IMG/VR virus record: IMGVR_UViG_2671181189_000003
Direction: 5' to 3' (one strand)
Length of the DNA stretch: 9,009 nucleotides
Source of the DNA: a virus
Lineage: Duplodnaviria; Heunggongvirae; Uroviricota; Caudoviricetes
The notes under the pieces are model-generated. The model ran no database searches. It had not been told where the DNA came from and was given only the letters and a program-made list of their open reading frames with translations. Made by a program: the position numbers and the translations under genes. How positions within the stretch are numbered: position 1 is the stretch's first letter; the number at the start of each line of letters is the position of its first letter. Of this stretch, positions 1 to 9,009 are shown piece by piece.

Positions 1-187
1 ACGTTTAACTCTCAAGCCTCGAGCCAAGCCTGTTTCAGAAGCCCCGTTACCTGATGAACCCATTCAGGGACATGCTGTTGCTGCAAATATCTCTGCGATT
101 GAAAAGCAGATGGAGGCGGCAGCAAACAAAGGGGATGTAGAGACGTACCGCAAGCTCAAGGCGCAACTGAATAAAGGAATTCGATAA
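1..187 (+). CDS. Scaffolding protein, C-terminal fragment (P22 gp8-like coat-binding domain); 5' end lies upstream of the window
   Basis: Frame 2 is open from base 2 to TAA at 185-187 and translates to [61 protein letters not shown]. The stop overlaps the coat ATG (TAATG), as expected for the scaffold-coat pair. Resemblance to the P22 scaffolding C-terminus is from memory. Confidence 0.75.
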
Positions 188-1479
188 TGGCATTAAATGA
201 AGGTCAACTGGTCACGTATGCTCTGGATGAAATCATCGGAACCGTCCAGAACCTGACGCCAATGGCGTCAAAAGTGACAAAATACCCCCCTCCGGCAGAA
301 TCCATGCAGCGTTCAAGCAACACCGTGTGGATGCCTGTTGAGCAGGAAGCGCCAACCCAGACTGGCTGGGATTTAACTGGCAACGCAACCGGGATTCTGG
401 AACTCTCCGTGAAGTGCAACATGGGCGATCCGGATAACGATTTCTTCGAGCTTCGTGCAGATGACCTGCGTGATGAGCGTTCTTACCGTCGCCGCATCCA
501 GGCATCCGCCAGAAAACTGGCGAATAACATTGAGTCAGCGATTGCCAAACAGGCAACTGAAATGGGCTCGCTTGTTGTTCACGATACCCGCGCAATTGGT
601 CCATCGACTGGCCTGCCTGGCTGGGATTTTGTGTCTGATGCAGAGCGACTGATGTTCTCCCGTGAGCTAAACCGCGACATGGGCATCAGTTACTTCCTGA
701 ACCCTGACGATTACCGCAAAGCAGGCCGCAACCTGGTAGATGGTGACATCTTCGGGCGCGTTCCTGAAGAAGCATATCGAAACGGTACTATTCAGCGTCA
801 GATTGCTGGCTTTGATGAAATTCTTCGCTCACCGAAACTTCCGGCAGTTACCAAGTCAACCGCGACTGGTGTAACTGTTTCTGGTGCGCAGAAGTTTAAG
901 CCGCAGGCATACACCCTTGATACCGATGGTAACAAAGAGAACGTCGACAACCGTGTTGCAACGGTGACCGTATCCTCCACCACCGGATTTAAGCGCGGCG
1001 ACAAAATCAGCTTCATTGGTGTGAAGTTCCTGTCTCAGATGGCGAAGAATGTGCTGACTGATGACGCGACTTTCTCAATCACCCGTGTGATCGATGGTAC
1101 TCACATCGAAATCACGCCGAAGCCGATTGCGCTGGATGACGCGTCACTGACAAAAGAAGAGAAGGCTTACGCTAACGTAAACACCTCTCTTGCTGATACC
1201 ACTCCGGTAAACGTTCTGAACGTGGCAACAACCACCGCTAACGTGTTCTGGGCTGATGACTCAATCCGCCTGCTGTCTCAGCCGATCCCGGTAACCCATG
1301 AACTGTTTGCTGGCATGAAAACGTCTTCCTTCAGCATTCCAGGTATTGGTGTTAACGGCATCTTCGCAACGCAGGGTGATATCAACACTCTGTCTGGTAA
1401 GTGCCGTATTGCTGTGNNNNNNNNNNNNNNNNNNNNNNNNNNNNNNNNNNNNNNNNNNNNNNNNNNNNNNNNNNNNNNN
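187..1479 (+). CDS. Major capsid (coat) protein, P22 gp5-like; 3' end hidden in N-run, end coordinate estimated
   Basis: ATG at 187; 410 unmasked residues beginning [30 protein letters not shown] and ending [37 protein letters not shown], which I recognise as strongly similar to the P22 coat protein. P22 gp5 is about 430 aa, so the stop should fall about 20 codons into the N-run (near 1479). The terminator, RBS and ATG at 1544-1582 argue against the 485-aa read-through shown in the ORF track. Confidence 0.9.
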
Positions 1480-1810: not shown

Positions 1811-2288
1811 TTTAGTTCTTGCGGCATTACGTAAGCTCGGTGTTGCATCAAATGCCACGTTAACCGATGTCGAACCGCAGTCTATGGAAGACGGCGTCAA
1901 CGACCTTGAAATGATGATGGCTGAATGGCTTGGCGGTGATGCGTCACCTGGTATCAACGTTGGCTACATTTTTGCTGATGCAGATGTTGCTCCGGATCCG
2001 GGCGATGAGCACGGTTTATCAAATAACGCTATCAATGCCGTCATTTTCAACCTTGCCTGCCGAATTGCTCCAGATTATGCGCTGGAAGCGTCTGCAAAAC
2101 TTATAACCACTGCCAGATACGGGAAAGAGCGACTCGTCAAACTGTCTGCAATGGACAGGGCAAAAGCAGCTAAATGTAAGTCCGGTTATCCAAACCGTAT
2201 GCCTGTTGGTAGTGGTAACCAGTTGGCGAAGTGGAATGGTTGGAATTACTTCCACCGAAAGGAACCTTGCGATAACGGGAGCGAATAA
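1788..2288 (+). CDS. Head-tail adaptor / portal-closure protein, P22 gp4-like (166 aa)
   Basis: Internal ATG at 1788 gives [50 protein letters not shown]..., which matches my recollection of the P22 gp4 N-terminus and its ~166-aa length. The stop TAA at 2286-2288 overlaps the next ATG (TAATG). The ORF-track start at 1719 would lie wholly inside the preceding small ORF. Confidence 0.85.
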
Positions 2289-3745
2289 TGCCTATTCAGC
2301 AACTTCCGCTTATGAAAGGTGTCGGCAAAGACTTCCGAAACGCCGACTATATCGACTATCTGCCAGTGAATATGCTGGCTACACCCAAAGAAATCCTGAA
2401 CAGCAGCGGATATCTTCGCTCATTCCCGGGCATTGCCAAACGTTCTGACGTGAACGGTGTATCTCGCGGCGTCGAGTACAACATGGCGCAGAATGCTGTT
2501 TATCGCGTGTGTGGCGGCAAGCTGTACAAAGGAGAAAGTGAAGTCGGTGATGTTGCCGGAAGTGGTCGTGTATCAATGGCGCATGGTCGGACATCACAGG
2601 CGGTAGGCGTTAATGGTCAACTGGTCGAGTATCGCTATGATGGCACGGTCAAAACCGTCTCAAACTGGCCTACAGACAGTGGATTCACTCAGTATGAGTT
2701 AGGTTCAGTTCGCGACATTACGCGCTTACGTGGGCGTTATGCGTGGTCAAAAGACGGAACTGATTCATGGTTTATCACTGACCTTGAAGACGAATCTCAT
2801 CCTGACCGTTACAGCGCACAATATCGTGCCGAGTCTCAGCCTGACGGCATCATCGGTATCGGGACATGGCGAGACTTCATCGTCTGCTTTGGTTCATCGA
2901 CTATTGAATATTTCTCCCTGACTGGCGCAACCACCGTTGGTGCCGCTTTGTATGTTGCACAACCATCGCTGATGGTGCAGAAAGGCATTGCCGGAACTTA
3001 CTGCAAAACGCCATTCGCTGATTCGTATGCGTTTATCAGCAATCCGGCAACGGGTGCGCCGTCTGTGTATATCATCGACTCCGGTCAGGTGTCACCAATT
3101 GCCAGCGCGAGCATTGAGAAAATCCTCCGCTCCTACACTGCTGATGAACTGGCTGATGGTGTGATGGAATCGCTGCGATTTGATGCTCATGAGTTGCTGA
3201 TTATCCACCTTCCGCGTCACGTCCTCGTGTACGACGCATCTTCAATCGCCAATGGCCCACAATGGTGTGTGCTGAAAACAGGTCTGTATGACGATGTGTA
3301 CCGCGCTATCGACTTCGTTTACGAAGGCAATCAGATAACGTGCGGCGATAAGCTGGAATCTGTTACCGGGAAACTGCAATTCGATATCAGCAGCCAGTAC
3401 GACAAGCAACAGGAACACCTGCTGTTTACTCCACTCTTCAAAGCGGATAACGCCAGAGTGTTCGACCTTGAGGTTGAATCGTCAACTGGCGTTGCGCAGT
3501 ACGCCGACCGCCTTTTTCTCTCTGCAACCACTGACTGCATCAATTACGGGCGTGAGCAGATGATTGAGCAGAATGAACCGTTCGTTTACGACAAGCGTGT
3601 TTTGTGGANNNNNNNNNNNNNNNNNNNNNNNNNNNNNNNNNNNNNNNNNNNNNNNNNNNNNNNNNNNNNNNNNNNNNNNNNNNNNNNNNNNNNNNNNNNN
3701 NNNNNNNNNNNNNNNNNNNNNNNNNNNNGCTCAGATAAGGATTGA
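2288..3745 (+). CDS. Tail hub / tail accessory factor, P22 gp10-like; 3' portion masked, end uncertain (about 3706 to 3745)
   Basis: ATG at 2288 overlapping the gp4-like stop; 440 unmasked residues [61 protein letters not shown]... consistent with P22 gp10 (about 472 aa) by sequence memory and synteny. If the N-run length is faithful and holds no stop, the frame ends at TGA 3743-3745, 4 nt before the tail-needle ATG. Confidence 0.8.
   Translation: MPIQQLPLMKGVGKDFRNADYIDYLPVNMLATPKEILNSSGYLRSFPGIAKRSDVNGVSRGVEYNMAQNAVYRVCGGKLYKGESEVGDVAGSGRVSMAHGRTSQAVGVNGQLVEYRYDGTVKTVSNWPTDSGFTQYELGSVRDITRLRGRYAWSKDGTDSWFITDLEDESHPDRYSAQYRAESQPDGIIGIGTWRDFIVCFGSSTIEYFSLTGATTVGAALYVAQPSLMVQKGIAGTYCKTPFADSYAFISNPATGAPSVYIIDSGQVSPIASASIEKILRSYTADELADGVMESLRFDAHELLIIHLPRHVLVYDASSIANGPQWCVLKTGLYDDVYRAIDFVYEGNQITCGDKLESVTGKLQFDISSQYDKQQEHLLFTPLFKADNARVFDLEVESSTGVAQYADRLFLSATTDCINYGREQMIEQNEPFVYDKRVLWXXXXXXXXXXXXXXXXXXXXXXXXXXXXXXXXXXXXXXXXXSDKD
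3610..3728. other. Masked/undetermined sequence (119 N) covering the gp10-like 3' end
   Basis: Run of n characters seen directly in the sequence. Confidence 1.
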
Positions 3746-3748
3746 GTA

Positions 3749-4597
3749 ATGGCTGATTCGAATCTCAATGTGCCGGTAATCATCCAAGCTACGCGGCTCG
3801 ATACATCAGTCCTTCCACGCAATATCTTCTCGCAGTCGTATCTGCTTTACGTTATCGCACAGGGCACTGATGTTGGTAACGTGGCTAACAAAGCCAACGA
3901 GGCCGGACAGGGCGCTTATGATGCACAGGTCAGGAACGATGAGCAGGATGTGATTCTCGCTGACCATGAGCAGCGAATTTCTGCTGCGGAAGCAACGCTT
4001 GTTAATCATGAGGAGCGAATCAGACAGGCAGAATCAACTCTTCAGGACCATGAAACACGAATAGCTCAGAATGAAAGCGATATTTCGTCGCTTGACACAA
4101 GAGTTCAGTCGCTGGAGTCGCAGGTTTCAGACCATGAAACGCGCATCGATGCTCTGGAGTATGCAACCACACGCAAGAAGTCAGAGGTTGTTTACTCTGG
4201 TGTATCTGTAACCATCCCGACAGCGCCGACCAACCTTGTTAGCCTGCTGAAAACGCTCACACCGTCATCCGGCTCGTTGGCACCATTCTTCGACACCGTT
4301 AACAACAAGATGGTTGTGTTCAACGAGAACAAAACCCTGCTCTTCAAGTTGTCGATTGTCGGCACGTGGCCCAGCGGAACCGCCAACAGGTCAATGCAGC
4401 TAACCTTTTCCGGCTCTGTTCCTGACACACTGGTCAGCAGTCGTAATGCGGCGACAACAACCGACAACATCCTGTTAGCTACGTTCTTCAGCGTGGATAA
4501 AGACGGCTTTCTTGCCACAAATGGCAGTACGTTAACCATTCAGTCGAATGGTGCGGCGTTTACTGCCACAACCATCAAGATAATCGCGGAGCAGTGA
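3749..4597 (+). CDS. Tail needle protein (P22 gp26-like N-terminus and trimeric coiled coil, with a longer C-terminal domain resembling the Sf6-type knob), 282 aa
   Basis: RBS AAGG at 3737-3740 and ATG at 3749. The N-terminus [43 protein letters not shown] matches the conserved gp26 N-terminal domain from memory. It is followed by 14-residue periodic repeats ([13 protein letters not shown] / [13 protein letters not shown] / [13 protein letters not shown] / [12 protein letters not shown]) and a roughly 140-aa Ser/Thr/Asn-rich C-terminal domain absent from the 233-aa P22 protein. Stop TGA at 4595-4597. Confidence 0.9.
3959..4165 (+). repeat. In-frame 42-nt (14-aa) periodic repeats encoding the tail-needle coiled-coil shaft
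   Basis: The motif D/N-H-E-x-R-I starts at residues 72, 86, 100 and 128, with a degenerate copy at about 114 ([10 protein letters not shown]). The nucleotide copies are diverged but recognisable (gaccatgagcagcgaat / aatcatgaggagcgaat / gaccatgaaacacgaat / gaccatgaaacgcgcat). Confidence 0.7.
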
Positions 4598-5052
4598 TGA
4601 TTACATTCAAACCAACGCGAAACATCGACCTGATAGAAGCAGTCGGAAATCACCCTGACATTATCGCCGGGAGCAACAACGGTGATGGATACGACTACAA
4701 ACCTGAATGCCGTTACTTTGAGGTGAACGTGCACGGTCAGTTTGGCGGCATTGTTTACTATCAGGAGATTCAGCCGCTGACATTAGATTGCCACGCCATG
4801 TACCTGCCAGAGATTCGCGGCTTCAGCAAGGAAATTGGGCTGGCGTTCTGGCGATACATTCTGACTAACACCACCGTTCAGTGCGTAACATCGTTCGCTG
4901 CACGCAAATTCCGACACGGTCAGATGTACTGCGCAATGATTGGCCTTAAGCGTGTAGGAACCATCAAGAAATACTTCAAAGGCGTGGATGACGTGACTTT
5001 TTACAGCGCCACACGCGAAGAACTAATCGACTTCCTGAATCACGGGAGATAG
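4597..5052 (+). CDS. Virion assembly/ejection accessory protein in the P22 gp14 position (151 aa)
   Basis: ATG at 4597 overlaps the tail-needle stop (TGATG); an in-frame GTG at 4594 is an alternative start. Translation [51 protein letters not shown]... Assignment is by synteny between the tail needle and the ejection proteins; I do not recognise the sequence itself. Confidence 0.6.
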   Translation: MITFKPTRNIDLIEAVGNHPDIIAGSNNGDGYDYKPECRYFEVNVHGQFGGIVYYQEIQPLTLDCHAMYLPEIRGFSKEIGLAFWRYILTNTTVQCVTSFAARKFRHGQMYCAMIGLKRVGTIKKYFKGVDDVTFYSATREELIDFLNHGR

Positions 5053-5054
5053 CC

Positions 5055-5796
5055 ATGTTATATGCATTTAAGCTGGGCAGAAAACTGCGCGGCGAGGAAC
5101 CTTATTGCCCTGAAAAAGGCGGGAAAGGTGGCAGTTCTGATAAAAGCGCAAAGTATGCAGCAGAAGCCCAGAAGTATGCTGCAGACCTGCAAAATCAGCA
5201 GTGGCAGACGATCATGAAAAACCTTGCTCCGTTCACGCCTCTTGCGGAGCAGNNNNNNNNNNNNNNNNNNNNNNNNNNNNNNNNNNNNNNNNNNNNNNNN
5301 NNNNNNNNNNNNNCTTCAGAACCTTTCCAGTTTAGAAGGTCAGGGGCAGGCACTTAATCAGTATTACAACTCTAAGCAGTATAAAGACCTTGCAGGGCAG
5401 GCGCGTTACCAGAGTCTTGCTGCTGCGGAGGCGACGGGTGGACTTGGTTCGACAGCCACAAGCAATCAACTGGCTACGATCGCGCCGACACTCGGTCAGT
5501 CTTGGTTATCAAATCAGATGAGCAATTACAACAATCTGGCAAACGTTGGGCTTGGTGCGCTGCAAGGTCAGGCAAACGCCGGGCAGACGTACGCCAACAA
5601 CATGAGCAGCATTGCACAGCAAAGCGCAGCTCTTGCCGCTGCTAATGCCAATAAACCATCAAGTCTTCAGACTGCAATTAGCGGTGGCACGTCTGGTGCG
5701 ATTGCCGGTGCAGGTCTTGCCAGCCTTTTGGGAACATCAACGCCTTGGGGCGCTGGTATTGGTGCTGGTATCGGATTGCTTGGCTCGTTGTTTTAA
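5055..5796 (+). CDS. Ejection (E) protein, P22 gp7-position; interrupted by N-run, with upstream and downstream parts in different frames as given
   Basis: RBS GGGAG at 5044-5048 and ATG at 5055, giving MLYAFKLGRKLRGEEPYCPEKGGKGGSSDKSAKYAAEAQKYAADLQNQQWQTIMKNLAPFTPLAEQ, then the N-run. Downstream, an ORF open from 5314 to TAA 5794-5796 is Gln/Asn/Ala/Gly-rich and ends in the hydrophobic Gly-rich tail GAIAGAGLASLLGTSTPWGAGIGAGIGLLGSLF. Combined length is about 246 aa, against about 229 aa for P22 gp7. The 61-nt mask leaves the halves offset by +1. Confidence 0.65.
5253..5313. other. Masked/undetermined sequence (61 N) inside the gp7-like gene
   Basis: Run of n characters seen directly in the sequence. 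Confidence 1.
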
Positions 5797-5805
5797 GGGG
5801 GAATC

Positions 5806-7137
5806 ATGGCTACTTGGCAAGGAACAAACGGCGGATTGTTGGCTGGTATCGGCGGCGTCAACTCAAACGCTCCGAGCGTAAATGACATCGGCAATACGCT
5901 TCAGCTTATCAGGCAGAACAATGATATTGAGCGTTCAGGCGCTAACAATGTTGGGCTGACTGCTTTGCAAGGTCTTTCAGGTATTGCGGGTGTTTTTCAG
6001 CAGGAAAAGCAGGCTCAGCGGCAGAAAGAATTTCAGCAGGCGTACGCTAATGCTTATGCGTCTGGTGATCGCGGTGCTTTGCGTCAGTTGGCTACTCAAT
6101 ATCCAGACCAGATTGAATCCGTTCGTAAAGGCATGGGATTCATTGATGAAGAGCAGCGTAATTCTATCGGCACCTTAGCGGCTGGCGCACGCCTTGCGTC
6201 ATCGTCTCCAGAAGCAATGCAATCATGGCTGCAAAACAACGCCGGTGAGTTAGCTCGTGTTGGCGTTAATCCTCATGACGTCGCTCAGATGTACCAACAG
6301 AACCCGCGGCAGTTCGGCGAATTTGTCGATCACCTGGGGATGAACAGTCTCGGGCCCGAAAAATACTTTGACCTACAGGATAAAATGCAGGGTCGCCAGG
6401 TTACCATGCGCGGTCAGGATCTGGATTCGCAAACCGCCGCTCGGAATCAGGCAATCACAATGCGCGGACAAGATATCCAGGCGAATTTAGGTCAGCAGCG
6501 CATTAATCTGGACGCAGAAACAAACCGCATTAACAACGAAAATAAGCGCCTTGACCGGATGCTATCAGCAGAAACTAACGACCTGAAGCGCCAGGAAATA
6601 CAGAGCCGCATAGCAGCCAACAACCAGCAGTTGCAGCAGAAGCAGCAAGCGCTAAATGATGGCTACAAAGACGGCATCAACACCCTCACAACCAGCATGT
6701 TCACTCTGAACGATATCGTTAGTTCTCCTTCACTTAAGAGCATTACAGGCTTACGTGGAGTAATCCCCAACGTTCCAGGCTCACAGGCTGCAGACACTCA
6801 GGCACGACTTGATACCTTTAAATCACAAGCATACCTGACAGCGGTTCAGGCCATGCGAGGCATGGGCGCACTTTCTGATGCCGAGGGCAAAAAGCTCGAC
6901 CAGGCTGTTGGTTCGCTGCAGAACTCGCAGAGCGAGGAGTCCTTTCGTCGCAACGCTGGCGTCATCCTGAACACGCTCAACCAGAAGCGTAATGAGGCGG
7001 TTGGTAAGTACGTTCAGCAAAACGGTATCAAGCGAGTGGAAGCGCCTCAGGCTTCTATAGATTACCTGAAGCAGCACCCCGAGCTGTCAATCGACTTCAT
7101 TAATCGCTACGGATATCTTCCATCTTTGGGGCAGTAA
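5806..7137 (+). CDS. Ejection (E) protein, P22 gp20-position (443 aa)
   Basis: Strong RBS AAGGGGG at 5795-5801 and ATG at 5806. Gly-rich N-terminus (MATWQGTNGGLLAGIGGVNS), a long Gln/Asn/Arg-rich predicted helical region and an internal TMRGQD repeat. Stop TAA at 7135-7137 sits directly against the next ATG. Assignment is by synteny and composition. Confidence 0.7.
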   Translation: MATWQGTNGGLLAGIGGVNSNAPSVNDIGNTLQLIRQNNDIERSGANNVGLTALQGLSGIAGVFQQEKQAQRQKEFQQAYANAYASGDRGALRQLATQYPDQIESVRKGMGFIDEEQRNSIGTLAAGARLASSSPEAMQSWLQNNAGELARVGVNPHDVAQMYQQNPRQFGEFVDHLGMNSLGPEKYFDLQDKMQGRQVTMRGQDLDSQTAARNQAITMRGQDIQANLGQQRINLDAETNRINNENKRLDRMLSAETNDLKRQEIQSRIAANNQQLQQKQQALNDGYKDGINTLTTSMFTLNDIVSSPSLKSITGLRGVIPNVPGSQAADTQARLDTFKSQAYLTAVQAMRGMGALSDAEGKKLDQAVGSLQNSQSEESFRRNAGVILNTLNQKRNEAVGKYVQQNGIKRVEAPQASIDYLKQHPELSIDFINRYGYLPSLGQ

Positions 7138-8868
7138 ATGGCTAATTACCGTGATTTGTTAGAGCAGGCTGGCGCACGTTACGGTGTGCCAGAAGGGTTG
7201 ATGACTGCACTGGGTGCCAAGGAGTCTTCTTACAACCCTGCCGCAGTAAGCTCCGCCGGGGCTGTAGGATTGACTCAGGTCATGCCTGGGACATGGCGTG
7301 ATATGGGTTATACCGATGAGCAAATGCAAAACCCCGAATATCAGGCTGACGCTGGCGCGCGCTATCTGGCAAAGATGTACCAGCAGTTTGGTAACTGGCG
7401 TGACTCTCTTCAGGCTTATCACGACGGTCCCGGCAACGTTATGAAGGCAAAGCGTGGTGAATATACGCCAGGACCTGAAGGCCGCGGTTACGTTGATGAT
7501 CGCTTTGCTCAATGGGCTGGTGACCCGGTGACAGACTCAACAGTCGAACAGCGCGCCACCTCTGCAAAGGTACATCCTCAGCAAGACCCTAACAACCCGT
7601 TTGCACAACTGGAAGTACAGTCATCCGAACAAGTATCGGCATCAGGTGTGCAGTCAGACCCAAATAATCCATTTGCTCAGATTGAGCAGCAGGCAGCCAG
7701 TCAGCAGCCACCTCAACCCGTAAGTTCTGTCGCACCGAAACCTGTTCAGCAACAAACAGTTAATCAGGCCAATAATGCACCAACACGGGAAGAACCATCA
7801 TTGATGCAACAAGCTGGCGATTGGCTCACTGGTGGTCAAAGTGCAGGGCAAATTGCAGAACAGGCTGGTCGTGGTCTGGTAAACATACCATTTGACGTAT
7901 TGCAGGGTGGCGCAAGTCTGATTAATGCAATCAGTCAGGGGCTTGGGGGGCCAAAAGTATTGGATGATGTTTATCGTCCAGTAGACAGACCGACAGACCC
8001 CTACGCGCAAGCTGGAGAGTCAATAGGCGGTTATCTTGTTCCTGGAGCAGGTGTAGCTGGAAACATGGTCATTGGTTCTCTCGCTGACGCGGCGAATCAA
8101 CGGGGTGATTTTGCCGAAAATGCCGCTATTAATGCCGGACTTAGCATTGCTACGCATGGCCTGATAAATGGCGTTACCCGTGGTGTTCGTGGTGCATCAA
8201 ATATAATTAGTGGCAATAAAACATCTGCACAGAGAGCGACCACTGCGCCAACAGAAACATCACCATTCTCCGGTGATGCCGCTGCAGCAACAAATCCTGC
8301 GGTTCATGCCGCAGAGGCAAGAGTAGCACAAGGTGTACCAATGACGCCTGCGACGAAGAACCCAGAGGAAGTCGTTCGCACAGTAGCAGCACAAAAAAGG
8401 CCAAATCTCGCTTCATCGCTTGATGAACTAGATATCAATCCTCAGGCTGAAGTTCTGGAGTCTGCTGAAAGGCTTAATGTTGATTCATTACTCCCTTCAC
8501 ACTTTTCCGGGAACGAGCAATACAAGGCAGTTGAGCAAGCAATCAAGTCCCGTGCGGGTTCTGCTCTACAGGTGCAGGAAAATGAAGCAATCAGGCAGCT
8601 AGCACAGGGCGCGGGTGAGATAATTGATCGCGTTTCCGGTGCAAAAGATGCTCTTGGTATGAGCGACAAGTTTATTGATACGGTCAATGGAAGAATGTCT
8701 GCGCTGATGAAACGAAGCGACCAGCTTTATCGCAATGTTGAAAAGGCGATGCCTGCAGGTGCAAAAATTGATGCGCCATCAACAAGGTCAATGCTCAAAC
8801 AGGTGGCAGAAGATCTTGGCGGGATGAAAAACCTTGACCCTATTGAAAAGAGAGTTGAGGTAGCCTGA
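7138..8868 (+). CDS. Ejection (E) protein, P22 gp16-position, with an N-terminal soluble-lytic-transglycosylase-like domain (576 aa)
   Basis: ATG at 7138. Residues about 20-100 carry the SLT family motifs: KESSYNP (candidate catalytic Glu29, codon 7222-7224), [14 protein letters not shown] (GLxQ motif) and AYHDGPGNV (AYNxG-like). These are followed by the tandem DPNNPFAQ repeats, a Gly/Ala-rich hydrophobic segment (about residues 296-350) and a helical C-terminus. Stop TGA at 8866-8868. Confidence 0.75.
7585..7686 (+). repeat. Two in-frame copies of a DPNNPFAQ(L/I)E peptide repeat, 72 nt apart, within the gp16-position gene
   Basis: gaccctaacaacccgtttgcacaactggaa (7585-7614) and gacccaaataatccatttgctcagattgag (7657-7686) encode [10 protein letters not shown] and [10 protein letters not shown], with many synonymous differences between the two copies. 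Confidence 0.8.
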
Positions 8869-8880
8869 GTTTAACGGACA

Positions 8881-8913
8881 CTCCTTCCTGAAATAGAATG
8901 GCATCAGAAGGAG
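8881..8913 (+). promoter_or_regulatory. Hairpin pairing an anti-Shine-Dalgarno sequence (CTCCTTC) with the downstream SD (GAAGGAG); a candidate sigma70-like promoter overlaps the region
   Basis: CTCCTTC at 8881-8887 is the exact reverse complement of GAAGGAG at 8907-8913 (19-nt loop). TTAACG (8871-8876), a 17-nt spacer and TAGAAT (8894-8899) resemble -35/-10 elements. This is the only real intergenic gap in the operon. Confidence 0.3.
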
Positions 8914-8993
8914 CTAATAATGAGCAGAAAAACCCAACGTGAACCGCCCCGGGAATCCTGGAGACTAAACTTCCTGAGAAAGAGGTAAACAGG

Positions 8994-9009
8994 ATGACTA
9001 AAAATACTC
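8994..9009 (+). CDS. Start of a downstream gene (only 5 codons in the window: MTKNT...); identity unknown
   Basis: ATG at 8994 preceded by AGAGG at 8981-8985. It does not begin with the MTDI... N-terminus I recall for P22/Sf6/HK620 tailspikes, so it may be an accessory (immI-like or moron) gene rather than the tailspike. Confidence 0.3.

Follow-up and report, generated by a model that had tools for sequence, protein, structure and literature searches.

The open reading frame at positions 3749–4597 raises the question of whether a phage tail needle has been put together from two different sources. The window (the whole 9,009 nt stretch analyzed, from the Caudoviricetes virus record IMGVR_UViG_2671181189_000003) had an initial annotation which proposed that this reading frame is a needle with a P22-type N-terminus and coiled coil fused to a long Sf6-type C-terminal domain. 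The needle is not a novel mosaic because its entire length runs colinear with that of a single known needle, gp9 of Shigella phage Sf6. The useful outcome is a negative one: what looks like a mosaic is how a known class of needles is ordinarily built, and there is no new fusion. The gene, its domain plan, the crystal structure, the distribution among P22-like phages and the behavior of tip swaps have all been published (2009–2013 for the Sf6-type class, 2009–2022 overall). Thus both gene and architecture are already known, with a structure solved at 97% identity. The value of the analysis lies chiefly in a correct annotation, and the window adds one further S. flexneri prophage allele.

The tail needle gene

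An ATG-to-TGA open reading frame of 282 aa spans exactly positions 3749–4597 on the + strand, and the peptides quoted in the initial annotation, including the C-terminal TIKIIAEQ, are found in its translation. It is an orthologue of Sf6 gene 9 and P22 gene 26. PHROG 1030 ('tail needle knob') matches residues 1–282 with an E-value of 5e-135, and PHROG 1219 ('tail needle protein', P22-type) matches residues 1–146 only. The alignment with Sf6 gp9 is gapless and 278 of 282 amino acids are identical, which bears out the annotation as a tail needle. At the nucleotide level the identity to Sf6 gene 9 is 98.3% with 100% of the gene covered. Residues 1–175 are identical, and the four amino acid differences (S176 for T, L198 for F, A234 for S and A270 for S, with the Sf6 residue given second) are conservative and all situated in the knob. 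Ten further codons differ from Sf6 by synonymous changes. Differences that are mostly synonymous point to purifying selection in the + frame, a signature that would record past and not present selection.

The exact 282 aa protein is already public as 'MULTISPECIES: tail needle knob protein [Shigella]' and is present in at least 1000 contigs in public databases. Nothing counts against the identity of the gene as a tail needle. The open reading frame is almost certainly an Sf6-type, knob-tipped needle, i.e. an ordinary characterized gene in a P22-like S. flexneri prophage. A search of NCBIfam with the needle yields no match to a dedicated model, only coiled-coil noise (SMC, RNase Y and others), far below the respective cutoffs. 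Antisense open reading frames inside the gene (3806–4009, 4192–4539 and others) are dismissed because the + frame protein shares 98.6% identity with a crystallized one and most of the nucleotide differences are synonymous in that frame.

The N-terminal hub-plug domain

Residues 1–68 (positions 3749–3952, + strand) form the N-terminal domain, by homology a helical hairpin that would plug the channel of the hexameric tail hub. Cryo-EM of Sf6 shows the N-terminal helical hairpin of the trimer as a quasi-six-fold plug in this channel (PMC9728967). All 68 residues are identical to Sf6 and 56 of 68 (82%) to P22 gp26, thus the N-terminal ~60 residues are gp26-like, as first annotated. PHROG 1219 gives an E-value of 4e-36 over residues 1–68, and the P22 gp26 chains 2POH, 3C9I and 8EAP (an N-terminal fragment) in the PDB match the domain as well. 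A gp26-type hub-plug domain is therefore present in this needle.

The coiled-coil shaft and the 42 nt periodicity

Between the plug and the tip, residues 69–139 (3953–4165, + strand) make up a coiled-coil shaft consisting of five degenerate units of 14 residues (42 nt), or about 10–11 heptads. A heptad-based shaft at this place, with a range of 11–16 heptads, belongs to the plan of the class and is present here. The published counts are 11 heptads in Sf6 and P22 and 16 in HS1 (PMC3741392). The shaft residues have a self-identity of 41% at a lag of 14 and 36% at 28, versus about 5% at other lags, and periodicity at lags 7, 14, 21 and 28 extends across residues 66–140. The shaft DNA shows 50% self-identity at lag 42, as compared with 28 ± 3.3% in codon shuffles, and none of 5000 shuffles reached as high a value. 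Generic coiled-coil Pfam families match residues 57–145; the Tropomyosin, XhlA, ATG16 and other matches all score under their gathering thresholds and stem from a composition common to coiled coils.

The shaft was first described as P22-like with a 14-residue period. Its periodicity and architecture agree with that description, but its sequence does not, as 71 of 71 residues are identical to Sf6 and merely 19 of 63 (30%) to P22 gp26.

The 42 nt repeats that had been noted exist in a degenerate form. A repeat search gives a family of four copies of a 23 nt core (CTnnnnGACCATGAGnnnCGAAT) with spacings of 42, 42 and 84 nt. The 42 nt units are 33–64% identical to one another and the longest exact run shared between them is 11 nt; Tandem Repeats Finder reports no array in positions 3700–4650, and the periodicity is visible by lag analysis only. 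The units are not recombinogenic repeats because they are too diverged, and by these identities they would be poor substrates for homologous recombination. The suggestion that they mediate recombination in this gene is therefore not upheld. The companion suggestion of shaft-length variation holds for needles as a group and is already published (PMC3741392). Natural length variants, i.e. the Gally, JEP4 and HS1-type needles, have 317 aa, with 35 additional residues (5 heptads) in the shaft and the N-terminus and knob unchanged.

The C-terminal knob

Residues 140–282 (4166–4594, + strand) constitute the knob. Their serine, threonine and asparagine content is 35%, versus 21% in the rest of the protein. 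Pfam PF16532 (Phage_tail_NK, 'Sf6-type phage tail needle knob') matches these C-terminal 143 residues with an E-value of 2e-116 and 386 bits, the cutoff being 27 bits, and the match covers profile positions 1–175 of 175. The PDB chains 3RWN (Sf6 knob, E-value = 6.5e-89) and 4K6B (HS1 knob, E-value = 2e-88) match residues 130–282 with E-values of about 1e-88 and an identity of 149/153 (97%). Over the knob proper the identity to Sf6 is 139/143. These matches substantiate the Sf6-type knob of the initial annotation.

The P22 gp26 chains in the PDB align to residues 1–144 only. A homologue of the P22 gp26 tip (residues 141–233) was sought in the needle, with no meaningful alignment past residue 140. 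Thus the Ser/Thr/Asn-rich domain is, as had been stated, missing in P22 gp26, and by its tip domain the needle would not be placed in the P22-type class.

Published work describes the knob as a TNF-like trimer with a width of about 45 Å and three L-glutamates bound between its subunits (PMC3741392). A structure prediction had been proposed as a check for a jelly-roll knob. The AlphaFold (AF2) model of residues 130–282 retrieves 3RWN and 4K6B first (TM 0.74), followed by BclA, EDA-A1/TNF, C1q and PRD1 P5; the model is a single chain made with no MSA and of moderate confidence (pLDDT 68), and serves as a consistency check only. The 97% identity to crystal structures, together with the fold search of the model, argues for a TNF-like jelly roll, which is trimeric in the crystals. 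Six residues are listed as contacting L-glutamate (PMC3741392), namely E146, K200, S248, D250, L255 and K277 in Sf6 numbering, and all six, read from the sequence, are kept in the needle.

Comparison with known needles

Sf6 gp9 is the closest characterized needle. In addition to the length, the gapless alignment, the N-terminus and the shaft, the flanking genes and the start/stop overlaps are shared with the window, as are all of the L-glutamate pocket residues. Unlike Sf6 gene 9, the gene in the window belongs to a chromosomal, IS-disrupted prophage.

The 317 aa needles of the HS1 prophage and Gally are similar at both ends; Gally is identical at 68 of 68 positions over residues 1–68 and at 140 of 143 over the knob. 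Their shaft differs, being about 70% identical in addition to its greater length (16 versus 11 heptads).

P22 gp26 (233 aa; 2POH, 3C9I) has the homologous hub-plug domain and a trimeric coiled-coil plan of 11 heptads, and its gene likewise sits between genes 10 and 14, but the tip of the protein is unrelated to the knob. PF16532 domains are also found outside the P22-like phages, in T4-like RB43, phage 31 and Vi1-like/Cba120-type phages. These are homologous C-terminal knobs with 35–56% identity, in proteins that are otherwise different and have neither the gp26-type plug nor the shaft. PRD1 P5-like TNF folds are fold neighbors of the knob.

Module exchange and the question of a mosaic

Read as a fusion, the initial proposal makes the needle a recombinant of its own, with an Sf6-type knob attached to a P22-type N-terminus and coiled coil at a new junction near residue 140. 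The P22 gp26 chains match residues 1–144 and the knob structures residues 130–282, as expected of such a protein, and the needle module is exchanged among related genomes. Identity to Sf6 gp9 is complete over the first 175 residues, however, which leaves no junction at residue 140, and the shaft is largely unlike that of P22. A 2013 survey of 164 P22-like genomes encountered the same architecture in 69 of them (PMC3741392). The initial annotation had itself named colinearity of the whole protein with a single known needle type as speaking against a fusion, and this is what the Sf6 gp9 alignment displays. The layout of a P22-like N-terminus followed by a knob is the published, defining layout of the Sf6 needle class (PMC3741392). 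Leavitt et al. (2013) reported this plug/shaft and knob plan, with the knob as Sf6 residues 140–282, found that the knobs differ by no more than 4.9% and proposed that they arrived recently in the group (PMC3741392). A distinct recombinant is hardly credible, and the preferred reading is a standard Sf6-type needle.

Nucleotide comparisons place the limits of similarity elsewhere. The flanking genes of the window are closest (97–99%) to those of phages IME10, Dewey and APC_JM3.2, nearer than to Sf6, and all three phages have 233 aa P22-type needles. The left limit of similarity to these relatives lies at positions 3957–3969, at about codon 70 and away from the shaft-knob boundary. The blastn segments to Dewey, APC_JM3.2 and IME10 end at 3957, 3969 and 3951, respectively, and similarity resumes at 4595, at the needle stop. 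Sliding identity to these relatives drops from 0.9–1.0 to 0.3–0.5 at the left limit.

Relative to Sf6, the needle gene has no mismatch over nt 7–525 (3755–4273; 519 nt) and a single earlier mismatch at 3754. Four SNPs private to the window allele are situated at nt 526–615. An E. coli prophage allele (strain 2017.15.01CC) agrees at every position with the last 207 nt (nt 643–849; 4391–4597), a stretch in which Sf6 differs at 9 sites. This patchwork of alleles and the similarity limits show that the recombination limits do not match the shaft-knob boundary. Alignment and sliding identity were used to look for a junction near residue 140 with Sf6 as the reference, and none was found. Mosaicism consists solely of module exchange at the level of the population: from about codon 70 through the stop the needle gene is Sf6-type, and the nearest relatives of the flanks carry P22-type needles. 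The fine-scale allele shuffling within the gene is typical of P22-like phages.

The blast match to Dewey is also split at window positions 174–188. The split stems from an HNH endonuclease gene that Dewey carries between scaffold and coat, in opposite orientation (1688–2209 of the Dewey locus); neither the window nor IME10 has this gene.

Proposed role of the needle and its knob

Structures and genetics of Sf6, HS1 and P22 describe the needle as a homotrimer which plugs the tail channel until it is expelled upon infection (PMC9728967, PMC3741392). The identity of the gene, the domain limits, the kept pocket residues, the synteny and the host are shown directly by the present analysis, and near-identity to these characterized proteins suggests the same roles for the trimer, the plug and the kinetics here. 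Three chains would assemble into a thin trimeric fiber, as in Sf6 gp9, HS1 and P22 gp26. The N-terminal ~60–68 residues would fold back as a helical hairpin, and once the DNA is packaged the resulting quasi-six-fold plug would close the tail-hub channel. Residues ~69–139 would form a three-stranded coiled coil of about 11 heptads. At the distal tip, residues 140–282 would fold into a globular, TNF-like knob with a width of about 45 Å and three L-glutamates between its subunits. On infection the needle would reach the outer membrane first, and its expulsion would open the channel for the ejection proteins and then for the DNA. The shape of the tip may modulate the speed of DNA delivery.

The position of the knob at the distal tip and its fold, which resembles TNF and the adenovirus knob, could also suggest a host-specific receptor-binding module that decides which species or serotype is infected. 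As of 2013, Sf6-type knobs were found in phages of Escherichia and Shigella only (PMC3741392). Against such a module, P22 hybrids with Sf6 or HS1 knobs show normal infection of Salmonella, and virions remain functional when the needle is tipped with a foldon (PMC3741392). Close homologues of the knob are also found in phages recorded on Klebsiella (95% nt identity) and Salmonella (78% aa identity). Receptor binding of this kind is unlikely. The authors of the hybrid-phage work likewise considered a role in host specificity unlikely; their test was made in Salmonella and left a specific role in Shigella possible (PMC3741392).

Mutants of the glutamate pocket are normal, and tip changes (HS1 knob, foldon) alter K+ release and DNA-delivery kinetics (PMC3741392). 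This published work indicates that the knob would tune the kinetics of DNA delivery and would not set the host range. The initial suggestion that a domain swap is relevant to host interaction is thus sustained with respect to K+ release and DNA delivery, but not with respect to the choice of host, given the normal infection of Salmonella by the hybrids.

The Salmonella phage is vB_SalP_ABTNLsp11242 (MW790496.1), where the 78% identity extends over the knob, and the Klebsiella phage is phiKp_30 (LC768498.2). Both Sf6-type knob needles fall outside the Escherichia/Shigella-only range reported in 2013 (PMC3741392).

Gene neighborhood and masked sequence

The gene order of the window, i.e. coat, gp4 homologue, tail hub, needle, gene 14 (DUF2824) and the gp7, gp20 and gp16 homologues, is that of the P22/Sf6 late operon. 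The needle is found between the tail-hub gene (P22 gene 10/Sf6 gene 8) and the gene 14 homologue, colinear with the annotations of Sf6, P22, IME10 and Dewey. The tail-hub gene (2288–3749, + strand) is a homologue of Sf6 gp8 and P22 gp10, colinear with Sf6 gene 8, and shows PF11134 in identical S. flexneri loci. Its stop codon TAA (3747–3749) and the needle ATG have one base in common, with the junction GAGTAATGG. In unmasked sequence the tail-hub protein ends in ...GAQIRIE*, and the 3′ end is masked in the window by the N run at 3609–3728. On the other side, the ATG of the gene 14 homologue (4597–5052, + strand; 151 aa, DUF2824) overlaps the needle stop TGA (TGATG). PF11039 is found in the corresponding gene call at 5849–6304 in identical loci, in agreement with the annotation of Sf6 gene 10.

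Three N runs at 1417–1528, 3609–3728 and 5253–5313 (112, 120 and 61 nt) replace only 59, 77 and 12 nt of real S. flexneri sequence, as read in an identical locus. The masks keep neither length nor frame, and therefore the open reading frames listed at 187–1644 and 2288–3745 have false C-termini.

The host prophage and its disruption by IS elements

Outside of the N runs the window is 99.9–100% identical to the S. flexneri chromosomes CP182555.1, CP054886.1 and CP001383.1, and genes for the exact needle protein lie on S. flexneri chromosomes. Homology to phages ends at about position 8855, where an IS3-family element begins. The element at about 8856 shortens the homologue of gene 16 (SLT/ejection protein) to 576 aa, and the loci read show no tailspike gene after gene 16. 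One S. flexneri locus (CP007037.1) shows two IS3-type transposase genes at 2112–4911 that replace all prophage genes upstream of the needle. The replacement stops about 90 nt before the needle ATG, and the block from the needle to gene 16 is kept at 100% identity. The prophage is probably defective because an IS3-family element cuts the gene 16 homologue, no tailspike follows in the loci read and upstream genes have been lost to IS elements in CP007037.1, and the needle is perhaps not assembled into virions today.

These same features bear on whether the needle is an idle relic of an IS-eroded prophage that is no longer built into infectious particles. In addition to the truncation, the absence of a tailspike in the loci read and the loss of upstream genes, more than 100 E. 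coli genomes contain an Sf6-type needle gene within small P22-like remnants (PMC3741392). The needle open reading frame is, on the other hand, intact and identical in many genomes, and its substitutions relative to Sf6 are mostly synonymous, though these signal past selection. An idle relic is a serious possibility, of somewhat less than even probability. It concerns the present use of the gene; the preferred reading of the gene itself is that of a characterized Sf6-type needle.

Persistence of the 100% identical block even where IS elements removed the upstream genes could also be read as retention by the host, e.g. as a domesticated envelope-active or exclusion module, or the four private knob substitutions could be taken to fit the tip to the Shigella envelope. 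Such readings are very improbable. Clonal descent of S. flexneri accounts equally well for the conservation of the block, and would require neither a host use nor an adaptation of the tip.

At the right end of the window, positions 8856–9009 display an IS3-family inverted-repeat end (TGAGGTAGCCTGAGTTTAACGG...) which is apparently broken by a second IS end (TGAACCGCCCCGGGAATCC...) at about position 8938.
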